DNA of 64,000 nt from Dehalococcoidia bacterium (GCA_965216065.1 CBDCFB010000002.1:960756-1024755); one strand, 5' to 3'; positions 41,757-55,698 are shown, counted from the stretch's first letter. Notes: generated by a model not told the origin, from the sequence alone. A program made the numbers and translations.

Positions 41757-42509
41757 ATGCTGAACCGCTTTCGGGATTTCGTCAAACGCCTCGAGTTGCC
41801 GCAGGAAGAGGAAGTTGTGTACCGGATAATCGACAACAACCTCAACACGCTGGAGGTAACGGCGGCGCAGTACGCCATTTGGCGCACGCGAAACGATGTT
41901 ACCCGCAGGGCAGTTGTCGGCCAAGATACCGTCGAAGACGTTATGGTCAGGACGACGTTTTCGATTATGCCCGAGAACAGGGCTTACAAGCCCTACGGCA
42001 CGTCAGCGTATGCGCTGCCCCTCTACGACCCCCTGCTTGAATACTTCCAAAGATATGATACCTGGACAGAGGCGGAGAACGGGCACCGGGATATCCTGGA
42101 GCTTATCAGTCATAAGGCGGACGAAGCCAGAGCAGATGAGGAGATCTCGCAGGCCTTTGCCGGAACTGCCGCCGAAGTTCGAGAGACCCTTTCGGCCCAG
42201 TTACCGGACCTGTTTTCGGTCAGGCGCACCGATGACCTGGCAGTGATTCGGACTCCGTTGCTTCGGCCCGACGGCTCGCCGGTTGAAGTGGCTGTGGGAA
42301 CGGCCGGCAGCGGCTACGAATTGACAGAGTATGGAAGTGCACAATCGGGGCCGGAGACTCTGCGGGGCAGTGCTCTACTAGAGGCCCTGGGCGTCGCAAC
42401 AGTTGACGGTCTGCTGATCTGCACGATTGATGATGTCGGTCAGCTGAGCGATGGGTTGCTCAGAGTGGCGCAAGCGATTTCCAGTGTGGCTTTGACAGCT
42501 TCAGAGTAG
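41757..42509 (+). CDS. Hypothetical protein, C-terminal half DUF1828-like
   Basis: 250-aa orphan between divergent metabolic genes. The segment AVIRTPLLRPDGSPVEVAVGTAGSGYELTEYG resembles the DUF1828 pattern as I recall it. Confidence 0.5.
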   Translation: MLNRFRDFVKRLELPQEEEVVYRIIDNNLNTLEVTAAQYAIWRTRNDVTRRAVVGQDTVEDVMVRTTFSIMPENRAYKPYGTSAYALPLYDPLLEYFQRYDTWTEAENGHRDILELISHKADEARADEEISQAFAGTAAEVRETLSAQLPDLFSVRRTDDLAVIRTPLLRPDGSPVEVAVGTAGSGYELTEYGSAQSGPETLRGSALLEALGVATVDGLLICTIDDVGQLSDGLLRVAQAISSVALTASE

Positions 42510-45168: not shown

Positions 45169-45388
45169 CCACCTCCCCGAAGGGCCTCGGGGGCGAGGTC
45201 CGGACCCCCTCTGCCGGGACTGGGGAATTGGGGCTATTCACCATCTCGGCAACGGTATCGTTTCCCGGTTTATGTCACGCCATGGGTATCAGAATCGAGA
45301 GGGAAATTGTGGGGATTGCGTGTCCGGATGATAGTCATGGGTATCAGGAATTTCACAATTCTCTCACCATTTTTTAATATTATGTCGT

Positions 45389-45418
45389 TTGACAAATACG
45401 AATTATTTAACATATCCT
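45389..45418 (+). promoter_or_regulatory. Candidate sigma70-type promoter in the AT-rich region upstream of the tubulin-like operon
   Basis: TTGACA (45389-45394), 18-nt spacer, TATCCT (45413-45418). Two direct copies of CATGGGTATCAG(A/G)AAT lie upstream (about 45281 and 45335). Confidence 0.3.
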
Positions 45419-45461
45419 AAATCAATGGAATGATGGGGTTTTCTGTGCCCTAGGAGCCGCA

Positions 45462-46496
45462 ATGGTAACATCATCAACCGACACGGGGATGATGCGACTC
45501 AGCGCCAACAGCAGCGTGCAGCGCATCGTATCCCCCTCAATGGTAATAGGGCTGGGCTCTACCAGCTGCCAGATCGTACGCAAACTTGAGGCGAACTCTG
45601 AGAACTGGAGCTTTGCCGACCGCAAAAACCTTGCATTTCTCTATATGGATACCCGTGAAGCAACCCGCGGAGAAATTTCCCGGGGGGCTCGCTTCATCCC
45701 GTTGGTATTGCCGCACTTCTCCAACCTGCGCGATATGCGTCCCTGGATCACGGAGTGTGTGCCGGAGCTTAAATTCCTCAGCCTGTCGCGCGAGGGTGCG
45801 TTGGGTACCCTTGCCAACGCCGGGGTGGCTGGCCGCTTCAACTACAGCGACATCCGGGGCCACCTGGATTCCACGATAGAGCAGATCTGTCCCTACTACG
45901 AAGGTATCACCTACCTGCGAATACACATCGTAGCCTTCCTGGGCGGGGGCACGGTGGGTGCGCTGCCGGTGCTGTTGGCGGCGCTGTCCGAGGTGAGGGG
46001 CACCGCCTACAACTTCAGCGTGGTGCTTCACCTGCTGCTTCCGCAACGGGGCATGTCCCGAGACCCTGAGAACACCTATCCTCTGCAGCTGCGGAACGCC
46101 TACGCCATACTGCAGTTCCTGCGCTCCATCACCGGAGTGGAGGTGGGACGAGGCGAATATACGGGAAGCGACACCTTCACCCTAACCGTCTATCCCGACA
46201 AGAGAATCGAGGCCATCGGTCCCCACTTCGACGTGTGTCTGTTGCACAGATCGCCCAAGGACTCACTGCCGGTGCAACGGAACCATGTCGCCCGCGTGCT
46301 GGAGGACCTGGTGGCCGACGCCTGGGGGACCGGACAGGACTGGTGGGCGCGTTTCCACGAGACCATGCGAGAGGCAAACAGCCAGGAAGACGCGCGATTC
46401 GGGTCGATCAGTTCCCGGGAGATCGGGCTGCTGGACGGCTTCTTCACCCAGACGGCGAAGCAGTATCTCCAGAACCAGTGGCGCAGCAGGCTGTAG
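45462..46496 (+). CDS. Divergent tubulin/FtsZ-superfamily protein (Tubulin_2-like) with degenerate nucleotide-binding motifs
   Basis: AGGAG RBS. VIGLGSTSCQIV (T1-like, canonical GLGGTG), EGALGTLANAGVAGRF (GAG...GR-like), IVAFLGGGTVGALP (tubulin signature GGGTGSG-like), RNAYAILQFL (ANAYAAL-like block of Tubulin_2 proteins). Confidence 0.6.
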   Translation: MVTSSTDTGMMRLSANSSVQRIVSPSMVIGLGSTSCQIVRKLEANSENWSFADRKNLAFLYMDTREATRGEISRGARFIPLVLPHFSNLRDMRPWITECVPELKFLSLSREGALGTLANAGVAGRFNYSDIRGHLDSTIEQICPYYEGITYLRIHIVAFLGGGTVGALPVLLAALSEVRGTAYNFSVVLHLLLPQRGMSRDPENTYPLQLRNAYAILQFLRSITGVEVGRGEYTGSDTFTLTVYPDKRIEAIGPHFDVCLLHRSPKDSLPVQRNHVARVLEDLVADAWGTGQDWWARFHETMREANSQEDARFGSISSREIGLLDGFFTQTAKQYLQNQWRSRL

Positions 46497-46511
46497 AAGA
46501 GGGGAGGTAAC

Positions 46512-48059
46512 ATGGCACGTTTCAAGATACGCAGAAACCGACCGTCCTTCAGCGAAATGAACAGCATCCTGCCGTCGCCGGTGGACGCGCTGGCCTTCAT
46601 TCAGAACCAGGGCCGCGGCGGATCCGGGGGCGCCAGAGATGCTTACAACCAGTTGATGGGGGCATTCCACGATACGCTTGCCGACGTGGAGCGCGCGCTA
46701 AGTTCCATCTTTGAGAGGTTGCGCCCCGAAGGGAATGTCAGCGACCGCATGGCAATGGAAGCCAACAGCGATGTGCGAACGGAACTGGCCAGAGCCAATA
46801 CGCTGGCCGACGTCCAGCGCAATGAACTACAGTCCGGGATATCCTTCCGTCTTCAGGCAATGTTCCTTCAGAACCTGATCATGACCCCGGACCAGGACCC
46901 GCCGGTGCGGCGCTGGGCGTCCCTGGCGGACAGGGTCGTACAACGGGACATGCCCATTGTCTCAGAGCCCGCTCACAGCGAGCTGGACGTGAACCCCAAC
47001 GAGCGCCGCAAGAGGCTGATGCGTTGGCAGATGGAGACGGACGAGTGGCTGGAGACCCTGTGTCTCAACCGGGTGGGTGAGGTCATCGCTCACCTGCTGG
47101 AAGAAATCGGCGATTATTCTTCTTCATGGACCGATACAGTCAATCAGTTGCGCCGGGAGTCGGTGGGTGGCGGGCGGCTGTTCCGAGAAGTAACCGACCC
47201 CGAATACTGGACCTTCGACAACGACGACCCCACGGTGAAGAACCTGGTGACAGGGGTACAGGCCCAGAATATTGCGGCCCGCATCCTCAATCGCTTCCAG
47301 CTCAGCAACATGGAGCTCATGGACATCTGCCAGTCAGTGCACCAGTCGCTTGGCGGCAAGCCGGTATACGGCTCTGAGCGGGTGGATATACTGGAGTTGG
47401 AGAACCTTCTGGCGGAGGCCACGGCTGTCAAGATCAAAGATACCGTTGCCATAGATGACGGCTTCCTGTCGCTGATATCCACGGGCTCCCGTTCCGGTGA
47501 GGAACTGGGCGAGTTGCTGGTGGAGATGCGCTTAGGCGCCGCGGCGATGGAAGAGAAGATGTGGAGGGTCGGAGAATTTCGGCTGGGCCACGTGGACTCT
47601 GCTTCCGGCGTCGGCATCACTTCCCAGGCCCTGCACGACTCGGTCATGCGCGGGCTGGGCGGCGGGCGCAAGTTTGCCGCCGTCGAGGGACACCCCAACA
47701 ACAACCACCGGTTCGAAGTGCAGATGTCGACCGTAGGCGCCTCCCTTTCCGATCTGGCTATCTTCCGGGACATGGTAAATGCCTGGTACTCGTGGCACTT
47801 CGAGGAACGCCGGGGAGAAAACGGGAACCGCAACGCCCGGATGGAAGCGGTCAGAAAGGAGTCCTGGAAGCTCTACCCGGACATCGGGCAGAACTCAGGC
47901 GTCCGCCCGGCAGTCATCGAGCTGATCGACGACGACCTTCGGCAGGTCTGGAACACCTCCGGAGATGTGGCTCTGCGCCTCGCCTATGGGCACCTCGAGG
48001 AGACCGATGCGGAGTTGATTCACACTCCGGAAAACGGAAGGGCTAGGCTCTCCAGCTAG
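46512..48059 (+). CDS. Hypothetical 515-aa partner protein of the tubulin-like gene (largely helical, unknown family)
   Basis: GGGGAGG RBS, 15 nt after the upstream stop. No family recognised. May correspond to the long C-terminal region of single-chain Tubulin_2 proteins. Confidence 0.6.
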   Translation: MARFKIRRNRPSFSEMNSILPSPVDALAFIQNQGRGGSGGARDAYNQLMGAFHDTLADVERALSSIFERLRPEGNVSDRMAMEANSDVRTELARANTLADVQRNELQSGISFRLQAMFLQNLIMTPDQDPPVRRWASLADRVVQRDMPIVSEPAHSELDVNPNERRKRLMRWQMETDEWLETLCLNRVGEVIAHLLEEIGDYSSSWTDTVNQLRRESVGGGRLFREVTDPEYWTFDNDDPTVKNLVTGVQAQNIAARILNRFQLSNMELMDICQSVHQSLGGKPVYGSERVDILELENLLAEATAVKIKDTVAIDDGFLSLISTGSRSGEELGELLVEMRLGAAAMEEKMWRVGEFRLGHVDSASGVGITSQALHDSVMRGLGGGRKFAAVEGHPNNNHRFEVQMSTVGASLSDLAIFRDMVNAWYSWHFEERRGENGNRNARMEAVRKESWKLYPDIGQNSGVRPAVIELIDDDLRQVWNTSGDVALRLAYGHLEETDAELIHTPENGRARLSS

Positions 48060-48087
48060 CGTTCACCCCTCACAAATCGGGAAAAGT

Positions 48088-48126
48088 CGCGCCGCCTGTT
48101 TTCCAGCAGGCGGCGCGGTTTATTTT
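48088..48126 (+). terminator. Rho-independent terminator of the two-gene operon
   Basis: CGCGCCGCCTG / CAGGCGGCGCG perfect 11-bp stem with 8-nt loop, then GTTTATTTT. Confidence 0.75.
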
Positions 48127-48181
48127 GTCCAAGGTCGGGGCTAAGATTTAGCAGATCCAAGGTCAAGCGGACGGAGGCAAG

Positions 48182-55091: not shown

Positions 55092-55562
55092 TTATTGTCC
55101 CATGGCGAGGATTTCGTCGAACTCCTCCCTGGTCACGGGCTGGATGGAGAGGCGCTGGCCCTTGCGGATCAGCAGCATGTCCTTCAGCCTGGGGTTGGCC
55201 TTGACCGCCTGTAAAGTGACGGGGTTCGGCAACGGTTTCTCGCCCTGGATCTCCACCACCGTCCAGACGGTCTCGCCGGGGCTGCTCTTGGGATCGTAGT
55301 GCTTGTCGTTTGGGTCCCAGGCGGTGGCGTCGGGGTAGGCTTCCTTCACGATGCGGGCGGTCCCGACGACGGCGGTGGGCTTGGCGCTGCTGTGGTAGAA
55401 GAGCACCCGGTCTCCCACCTTCATATCGTCGCGCATGAAGTTGCGGGCCTGGTAGTTGCGCACGCCGTCCCACTCCGCCGTGCTGTTCTCCTCGTTCAGC
55501 AGGTCGTCGAAGGAGTAGGCAGACGGTTCCGACTTGAACAGCCAGTATTTCGGTTCTGACAT
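55092..55562 (-). CDS. EVE (PUA-like) domain protein
   Basis: MSEPKYWLFKSEPSAYSFDDL...WDGVRNYQARNFMRDDMKVGDRVLFYHS is the canonical EVE/DUF55 pattern. Confidence 0.85.
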   Translation of the reverse strand: MSEPKYWLFKSEPSAYSFDDLLNEENSTAEWDGVRNYQARNFMRDDMKVGDRVLFYHSSAKPTAVVGTARIVKEAYPDATAWDPNDKHYDPKSSPGETVWTVVEIQGEKPLPNPVTLQAVKANPRLKDMLLIRKGQRLSIQPVTREEFDEILAMGQ

Positions 55563-55698
55563 TTTCACCCTCACCCTGGCCCTCAATTCAGAGGGAAATG
55601 ATGGTGCTGGGAGATTTCACCTCCACCCTATGTCCGGTAGAGAGGCGAATTGCGCAGAATTTCACCCCCACCCTAACCCTCCCCCTCAGGGGAGGGGA
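55561..55698. repeat. Cluster of three REP family A units (TTTCACCC.CACCCT...CCCTC-loop-GAGGG)
   Basis: Units at 55561-55598, 55612-55646 and 55658-55698. Further copies are at 22752, 26773, 28871, 29391, 29441, 30759, 34129, 49188, 52111, 54850 and 59383. Confidence 0.8.

Follow-up and report, generated by a model that had tools for sequence, protein, structure and literature searches.

In a stretch of 64,000 nucleotides (nt) from a Dehalococcoidia bacterium (GCA_965216065.1 CBDCFB010000002.1:960756-1024755), which we refer to as the window, two co-oriented open reading frames, ORF1 and ORF2, form a compact cassette with promoter-like and terminator sequences of its own (Table 1). Profile and fold comparisons show ORF1 to be a divergent tubulin/FtsZ-like protein, predicted to bind nucleotides (Pfam Tubulin_2/FtsZl1), and alignment with fused homologues shows the pair to be the split counterpart of a single-chain protein. 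An earlier reading of the window, made from the sequence alone (the sequence-only reading), had drawn attention to these two genes; their layout, 15 nt apart and each behind a good ribosome-binding site, was found exactly as described there. Both are real genes under strong purifying selection, with ratios of nonsynonymous to synonymous substitution (dN/dS) of 0.017-0.043 for ORF1 and 0.038-0.087 for ORF2, compared with 0.03-0.08 for the flanking thiamine pyrophosphate (TPP) enzyme and short-chain dehydrogenase/reductase (SDR).

Table 1. Features of the two-gene cassette; positions are counted from the first letter of the window and residues from the start of each protein
Feature	Position	Strand	Description
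Direct repeat, copy 1, CATGGGTATCAG	45281-45292	+	exact 12-nt repeat; possible operator
Direct repeat, copy 2, CATGGGTATCAG	45336-45347	+	exact 12-nt repeat; 55-nt spacing between copies
Promoter candidate TTGACA-18 nt-TATCCT	45389-45418	+	sigma-70-like; 10/12 positions match; in AT-rich stretch
ORF1 Shine-Dalgarno AGGAG	45452-45456	+	5 nt ahead of ATG
ORF1	45462-46496	+	344 amino acids (aa), ATG start
T1 equivalent VIGLGSTS	45543-45566	+	residues 28-35; G30-L-G-S-T-S35
T2			ORF1 D63-T64
T3 equivalent EGALGTLANAGVAGRF	45792-45839	+	residues 111-126; G112-A-L-G115...N119-A-G...R125
T4 signature-loop equivalent FLGGGTVGA	45936-45962	+	residues 159-167; G161-G-G-T-V-G-A167
T5			ORF1 P194-Q-R-G
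H5			ORF1 Q209-L-R-N212-A-Y; RNAYAILQFL motif at residues 211-220
ORF2 Shine-Dalgarno GGGGAGG	46501-46507	+	in the 15-nt gap, 4 nt ahead of ATG
ORF2	46512-48059	+	515 aa, ATG start; 15 nt downstream of ORF1
ORF2 helical part	46539-47447	+	residues 10-312; confidently predicted long-helix bundle, coiled-coil-like stalk
ORF2 C-terminal region	47448-47951	+	residues 313-480; most conserved part; rich in W, H, G
Intrinsic terminator	48084-48131	+	17-pair hairpin 48084-48121, then T-rich tail

A tubulin/FtsZ-like protein and its detached partner

The assignment of ORF1 to the Tubulin_2 branch of the tubulin/FtsZ superfamily, proposed by the sequence-only reading on the strength of four quoted motifs, is borne out by three comparisons, and the motifs themselves are present at residues 28-35, 111-126, 159-167 and 211-220. 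First, ORF1 scores 38.1 bits against Pfam PF13809 (Tubulin_2), above the gathering score of 27 (E 1.4e-9), the match spanning residues 127-310 on profile positions 131-314 of 356, and many ORF1 orthologues carry a precomputed match to the same family. Second, comparison of the ORF1-family profile with the Tubulin_2-annotated protein P0267 by hhalign gave a probability of 97.8% (E 1e-12). Third, an AlphaFold2 (AF2) model built from 31 orthologues, with a predicted template modelling score (pTM) of 0.76 and a mean predicted local distance difference test score (pLDDT) of 69.6, was searched with Foldseek against PDB. At E <= 1e-3 it retrieved three matches, only TubZ and FtsZ, among them phage c-st TubZ (3v3t, E 5e-5) and S. 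aureus FtsZ (4dxd, E 8.5e-5); CetZ (3zid), B. thuringiensis TubZ (2xkb) and eukaryotic tubulins are also among the top matches, every one of which is a tubulin-superfamily protein. The same threshold in BFVD gave four matches, three of them phage proteins named as tubulin/FtsZ and one unnamed, and the top matches there include phage tubulin, FtsZ and PhuZ proteins. Below the threshold, CetZ, tubulins and PhuZ come next. ORF1 has no match in NCBIfam, PADLOC or PHROGs and no Pfam match to FtsZ_C, Tubulin_C or PF00091, and its profile found nothing below E 0.08 among PDB chain sequences. A third homologue search, word-indexed and based on a wider ORF1 profile, was swamped by close relatives; the only distant additions, two Tubulin_2 fragments, served for motif comparison and did not suffice to place the clade.

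The relation between the two genes became clear from an exhaustive HMMER search with an ORF2 profile over 1.84 billion cluster representative proteins. Just 41 representatives matched, mostly fragments, and among them are two fused proteins, P0227 (969 aa) and P0231 (850 aa), whose residues 362-817 and 355-808, respectively, match ORF2. By blastp, the N-terminal ~340 residues of the fused proteins are 39-40% identical to ORF1 (E 1e-71 to 1e-76), and the match of the fused chains to ORF2 has 28% identity (E 1e-39 to 1e-40). When the fused proteins are compared with the window by tblastn, the alignment is colinear across both ORFs. Since the N-termini match ORF1 and the C-terminal parts match ORF2 in the same order, the alignments show the pair to be the split form of a single-chain protein, and ORF2 is by homology the equivalent of the C-terminal two-thirds of its single-chain relatives, as the sequence-only reading had supposed. 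The break point is a low-complexity linker, flanked by the conserved "...KW" with which the tubulin-like part closes and the conserved DPLxFL that opens the helical part. A more distant split pair occurs in locus L081, with an ORF1-like protein 45% identical to ORF1. In a few other database proteins (P0102, 455 aa, and P0098-P0101) the C-terminus of ORF1 is continued by ORF2 or by unrelated domains (phage-integrase-type, phosphotriesterase); each of them was seen once, on one contig, and has the look of an artefact of gene calling or of a frameshift and not of a real fusion.

ORF2 had been described as a protein without a nameable domain, and it has no significant match in Pfam, NCBIfam, PADLOC or PHROGs and nothing below E 0.08 when its profile is compared with PDB sequences. 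Sub-threshold assignments to DehI (19 bits) and VanS-O (15 bits) were dismissed as noise, and so were the generic helical bundles (ClyA, tripartite toxins) that Foldseek retrieved from PDB for the ORF2 model, the best of them at a non-significant E of 0.64. The AF2 model places helices at residues 41-69, 78-124 and 162-217, with pLDDT mostly 84-97 in the N-terminal part. This helical part opens with a DPLxFL motif (residues 25-30; DALAFI in the window copy). In split and fused forms alike, L27 and F29 of the motif never vary, and D25 and P26 hardly ever. Invariant columns are dense between residues 339 and 475, within the C-terminal region, for which neither a structural nor a profile match was obtained.

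Predicted nucleotide loops of ORF1

With the loop nomenclature of Makarova and Koonin 2010 (PMC2875224), and loops assigned by the order of secondary structure elements, equivalents of T1 to T5 and of helix H5 can be placed on ORF1 (Table 1). In T1, G30-L-G-S-T34 and C36 are at least 90% conserved. In T3, which aligns with NGAGGIRNNGHVA of P0267, G112, G115 and R125 are invariant, fused forms included, and in T4 the same holds for F159, G161, G162, G163, T164 and G166 across the clade and the fused forms. D63/T64, G112/G115, P194 and N212 are likewise invariant in split and fused forms alike, at an overall identity of 39-45%.

The sequence-only reading had taken the substituted glycine-rich positions as a sign of degeneracy, and ORF1 as a possible pseudo-GTPase. 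Part of this stood and part did not. The GSTS of T1 is also found, as LLGSTSA, in the Tubulin_2 proteins P0267 and P0268, both of which carry the canonical GGGTGSG (FLGGGTGSGILP in P0267); GSTS is therefore a subfamily trait. The real deviation, as judged from the alignments, is confined to the second half of T4, where the clade and its fused relatives have GGGT[VI]G[AGS]LP instead of GGGTGSGILP, and this deviant loop is itself invariant. It could be argued that the altered T4, one residue shorter than that of P0267, abolishes nucleotide binding or hydrolysis and that the pair is a static scaffold or binds another ligand, the more so as neither a T7 catalytic loop nor a C-terminal activating domain can be identified, which Makarova and Koonin also noted for FtsZl1. 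Yet loop positions are among the most conserved of the protein and the deviant loop is fixed, a pattern that is that of a functional site and not of a decayed one, and GSTS co-occurs with the canonical signature in relatives. We hold a pseudo-GTPase to be unlikely. Because the deviant loop and the other loop positions are invariant in split and fused forms, the ORF1 loops are best read as a remodelled but functional ligand site.

Distribution, neighbourhood and copies of the cassette

When one genome of each GTDB species was scanned, 69 loci came to light, almost every one of them under the label Dehalococcoidia, Chloroflexota or SAR202; complete Dehalococcoidia chromosomes with the pair include OZ247426.1, OY282565.1 and OZ240213.1. 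Whether the two genes are conserved together had been named as a check by the sequence-only reading, and ORF1 is directly upstream of ORF2 in all 67 loci that hold both (67/67), with a gap of 2-47 nt (mode 11) at 65 loci. Conservation of the locus extends over 60+ species-level genomes, and it keeps its place in the chromosome throughout the clade; between the most divergent members, identity is still ~70% for ORF1 and ~49% for ORF2, compared with 73-80% for the neighbouring enzymes. Some loci are irregular. ORF2 of L076 (5915-9070) is disrupted by both a frameshift and an insertion of ~1.5 kb, and in L028 (6941-7983) and L056 (6951-9472) ORF1 and/or ORF2 are split into two frames; these breaks reflect either occasional pseudogenisation or long-read assembly errors. 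On a contig binned as Longimicrobiales (L080, 8037-8213), an ORF2 homologue is reduced to its final ~60 codons, and right behind it come the SDR and NAD_binding_2 genes that are typical of the Dehalococcoidia locus; the contig is probably a mis-binned one from Dehalococcoidia and the fragment what a deletion has left, and a partial ORF1 labelled 'Dadabacteria' (P0090, 77% identity) may be a similar binning artefact.

The sequences around the pair agree in the main with what the sequence-only reading had reported. The upstream region is AT-rich, its GC content being 0.495 over 45170-45460 and 0.359 over 45330-45460, against 0.627 for the whole window. Six promoter-like sites lie in the region, against 0.9 +/- 0.8 in shuffled sequences, and the best of the six is the TTGACA/TATCCT candidate that had been singled out. 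AGGAG or GGAGG is present at equal distance from the ORF1 start in nearly all 67 related loci. Downstream, the announced perfect stem of 11 base pairs was located as the GC-rich core of the terminator, with 48088-48098 (CGCGCCGCCTG) paired with 48107-48117 (CAGGCGGCGCG). The claim of two direct repeats needs a correction: the exact 12-nt sequence occurs twice, its only occurrences in the whole window, but the longer consensus was slightly off, AATCG following one copy and GAATT the other. In L012, the closest relative, the 8-nt repeat core ATGGGTAT is found at about -181/-126, and several other near relatives have one copy of it. As only this core recurs there and the exact 12-mer is unique to the window, a conserved operator was rejected, and the repeat hints only faintly at a function. 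We also observed a short GC-rich hairpin (e.g. GGGCGCA...TGTGCCC) just 5' of the ORF1 Shine-Dalgarno sequence, at ~45435-45450 and at the same position in L012-L037. It was discarded as a conserved RNA element (84% paired across 18 sequences, covariation not above shuffles, no RNAalifold consensus), and Rfam and tRNA scans of the window and the upstream region gave no match.

The primary copy lies in a block composed of an amidohydrolase, a glyoxalase-fold protein, the TPP enzyme, the pair, the SDR, an NAD_binding_2 dehydrogenase, a HAD protein and an HpcH aldolase. Perhaps, then, the pair is not independent and works with its metabolic neighbours, namely the glyoxalase-fold protein, the TPP enzyme, the NAD-binding dehydrogenase and the HpcH aldolase; it could, for instance, organise or regulate an enzyme assembly. 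Most of the 69 loci do preserve the order amidohydrolase (-), glyoxalase (+), TPP enzyme (+) where present, pair, SDR where present, NAD_binding_2 (-), HpcH, even where ORF2 identity has dropped to 47-50%. Nevertheless, an entire subclade has the pair and no TPP gene (L036, L039-45, L047, L048, L050, L056, L075 and L077), the SDR is often absent beside the pair, and the pair has a promoter-like region and a terminator of its own. Moreover, second copies of the pair (L055, L079, L069) and its distant relatives (L010, L011, L081), both described below, have wholly different neighbours. A functional tie to the flanking enzymes appears very improbable to us. Two further genes of the surroundings may be mentioned. 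For a 250-aa ORF at 41757-42509 (+), flanked by the amidohydrolase gene and the gene of the glyoxalase-fold protein, a precomputed Pfam match is not on record; close relatives have it in the same position, where it is fast-evolving (42-81% identical, its neighbours 80-95%), and deeper relatives lack it. An EVE-domain (PUA-like) gene at ~55094-55564 (-), as placed from L001 (19633-20103), lies a few kb downstream of the pair throughout the clade, adjoining nitroreductase and AMP-binding genes, and shows no apparent link to the pair.

The strongest evidence that the cassette is self-contained, as the sequence-only reading had claimed, comes from the second copy in L055 (6798-9583; contig CBDCQN010000003.1, from the same genome as L051), which is surrounded by genes for AbiEi_4, GmrSD_N, a DDE_3 transposase and a large serine recombinase. 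The shared DNA amounts to 2.8 kb and runs from exactly 154 nt upstream of ORF1 through the ORF2 stop, with nothing else; the two genes therefore move as a unit with their proximal upstream region, which shows that the cassette stands on its own. With 95.8% identity it is nearer to the primary copy in a different genome (L054) than to the one in its own (L051, 92.4%), and this suggests that the 2.8-kb segment was transferred laterally. Of the other second copies, that of L079 adjoins TnpB and that of L069 lies among metabolic genes and minC.

Mobile surroundings of this kind raise the question whether the pair is a minimal biological-conflict (anti-phage or abortive) module, in which a tubulin-like assembly dependent on nucleoside triphosphate (NTP) would act as the switch and the effectors would lie elsewhere or in the ORF2 C-terminal domain. 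Kaur et al. 2020 (PMC7159879) have placed tubulin plus coiled-coil/alpha-helical proteins in GTPase-centric GAP1-N2 systems with vWA partners, and the AbiEi_4, GmrSD_N, recombinase, transposase and TnpB genes beside the L055 and L079 copies fit such a setting, as do the membrane-protein operons of the distant relatives, with a weak SLATT_1 match and a near-threshold Prok-JAB match. On the other hand, PADLOC matches neither ORF1 nor ORF2, the SLATT match is found in only one of three orthologues, and neither the window nor the +/-8 kb around the pair at the 69 loci holds a vWA, GTPase, HSP70 or recognisable effector gene; nor is there a protein kinase or OmpA-family gene among the called neighbours or in the contexts of the second copies. 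Relatives of ORF1 and ORF2 are absent from phage, plasmid and IMG/VR collections. In addition, dN/dS as low as that of metabolic enzymes and a stable chromosomal position are both atypical for defence genes. The sequence-only reading had left the function open between cytoskeletal, membrane-remodelling and conflict roles; the conservation pattern does not favour the last, and we consider a conflict module quite unlikely.

The fused relatives of L010 (643-11200) and L011 (3106-10467) and the distant split pair of L081 (2-7891) are each embedded in a co-directional operon, and these operons share three or four further proteins: an upstream protein of 305+, 388 or 429 aa with a C-terminal transmembrane helix, a downstream protein of 699-755 aa with two or three central transmembrane helices, a protein of 233-246 aa with four transmembrane helices and, at two loci only, a membrane protein of 384-408 aa. 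None of these is in the window operon, and none of the membrane partners belongs to a Pfam, PHROGs or PADLOC family. The label SLATT_1 for partner C of L010, which has two transmembrane helices, was set aside at 19 bits (cut-off 41; E 9e-4) and serves as a lead only; L010 also carries a Prok-JAB gene near threshold (24.8 bits, cut-off 25). A metagenome scan for more full operons with the partner-C alignment gave pattern matches, none of them confirmed as homologues. The three operons look like an undescribed multi-gene system. As homologues of the partners are absent from the 64-kb window and from the +/-8 kb flanks of the pair in the 69 loci, either the Dehalococcoidia cassette has been reduced from a membrane-associated multi-gene system to an autonomous pair, or its partners are encoded elsewhere in the genome. 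A bolder version would make ORF1, ORF2 and their rare relatives a distinct branch of the tubulin superfamily, with a phosphate-loop geometry of its own (GGGT[VI]G[AGS]) and a unique conserved C-terminal domain (ORF2 residues 313-480) that might replace the missing activating domain in trans, in which an ancestral membrane machine of five to six genes (L010, L011, L081; partners with one, two and four transmembrane helices) was reduced in SAR202/Dehalococcoidia to a two-gene housekeeping filament, cytomotive or scaffolding. This is conceivable, and at present we regard it as doubtful.

Predicted assembly and comparison with known systems

We consider it rather probable that the cassette encodes a two-subunit, split protein of the FtsZl1/Tubulin_2 type with nucleotide-dependent assembly. 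The pair would be transcribed from its own promoter, with translation probably coupled, giving ORF1 as the predicted nucleotide-binding tubulin/FtsZ-like module and ORF2 as a putative long-helix stalk with a conserved C-terminal domain. A heterodimer of the two would reproduce the single-chain protein, the likely contact being between the conserved ORF1 tail (~290-344) and the N-terminal DPLxFL/helical region of ORF2. Guanine nucleotide bound at the T1-T5 loops may then drive self-assembly into oligomers or filaments, in which ORF2 would serve as a spacer or adaptor. In Dehalococcoidia/SAR202 the pair may be a vertically inherited housekeeping element, cytoskeletal or scaffolding, and not a mobile defence gene; such a cellular role is favoured over a conflict system because of its slow evolution, its stable chromosomal position and the absence of defence neighbours.

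Several observations weigh against this picture and should be kept in mind. The Foldseek TM-scores (template modelling scores) of ORF1 are 0.36-0.45 and its mean pLDDT is moderate, so the fold call is carried by ranking and E-values and not by tight superposition, and these modest scores fit a very divergent member seen through a model of medium confidence. ORF1 fails the signature GGGTG[ST]G, having the shorter GGGTVGA. No FtsZ_C/Tubulin_C domain and no T7, or catalytic (acidic), loop can be assigned in it, and its model has only three short strands and three helices past helix H5 (residues 205-224); GTP hydrolysis and head-to-tail polymerisation are therefore hypothetical. FtsZl1 is likewise described as having no recognisable C-terminal FtsZ/tubulin domain or T7 loop (Makarova and Koonin 2010, PMC2875224). 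As for ORF2, its C-terminal domain has no confident fold (AF2 pLDDT < 50), and no similarity can be detected between the ORF2-type region and most of the FtsZl1 C-terminal regions, many of which the 1.84e9 library must contain; because only 41 proteins match the ORF2 profile, its equivalence to the generic FtsZl1 stalk is one of architecture and not of sequence. Finally, the neighbourhood gives no pointer to the cellular process that the pair would serve.

Among known proteins, TubZ, PhuZ, FtsZ and CetZ are the best structural matches of the ORF1 model and share with it the order of loops T1-T5. Their identity to ORF1 is only 7-17% and the TM-scores are low, and ORF1 has neither a T7 loop nor a canonical C-terminal domain nor the exact signature; furthermore, the pair is not found on a plasmid or phage and has neither TubR/centromere nor cell-division context. 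With the conflict systems of Kaur et al. 2020 (PMC7159879), in which the tubulin plus coiled-coil architecture was recast as a conflict-system component, the pair shares a tubulin domain followed by a C-terminal coiled-coil/alpha-helical extension and predicted NTP-dependent multimers. However, it is without linked GTPase (GAP1-N2/DO-type), vWA, FNIII, HSP70 or effector genes, it belongs to Dehalococcoidia/SAR202 and not to Firmicutes/Actinobacteria, and it is chromosomal, vertically inherited and slowly evolving rather than patchy or mobile, even though three second copies stand in variable or mobile contexts.

The closest comparison is with FtsZl1 itself, described in silico in 2010 as an FtsZ-like domain with a coiled coil and an alpha-helical C-terminal domain (PMC2875224) and reinterpreted in 2020 (PMC7159879), so that the undescribed system envisaged by the sequence-only reading is not one in its architecture. 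No members of the tubulin superfamily are more divergent than the FtsZl1/Tubulin_2 proteins, its least understood branch, and fifteen years after their prediction these have no experimental function and two competing in silico readings, membrane remodelling and conflict system. The reduced, partner-less form found here argues for a cellular over a defensive role, at least in this clade. It documents gene fission or fusion within a tubulin-like family and offers a naturally dissected version of it, a small soluble 344-aa predicted nucleotide-binding module with a separate partner, strongly selected in SAR202/Dehalococcoidia, an abundant, uncultured lineage of marine and subsurface habitats. The split form should ease biochemical work on GTP binding and polymerisation, on the roles of stalk and C-terminal domain, and on whether a tubulin fold can do without the canonical activating domain. 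Full-text literature searches returned no paper on the split form or on any tubulin-like protein in SAR202/Dehalococcoidia.

Like FtsZl1/PF13809, 1- ORF1 exceeds the gathering threshold and has inserts between T1 and T4, 2- it is without a recognisable T6-H7 region or C-terminal FtsZ/tubulin domain, and 3- ORF1 plus ORF2, as well as the fused P0227 and P0231, reproduce the succession of tubulin-like domain, long helices and C-terminal domain. Differences are seen in the length and number of chains, a typical member being a single chain of ~1000 aa and the pair being split into 344 and 515 aa; in T4, where GGGT[VI]G[AGS] is one residue shorter than GGGTG[ST]G; in the ORF2-type region, a rare, clade-specific sequence family; and in the usual operon partners (vWA, protein kinase, P-loop GTPase, OmpA), which were not found near the pair. 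Because the exact signature, the single-chain architecture and the vWA/kinase/GTPase/OmpA context are all wanting, it is a variant and not a typical member. As judged by profile and model, ORF1 is nonetheless a member of the in silico-defined Tubulin_2/FtsZl1 family, not categorically new, and new in its split form.

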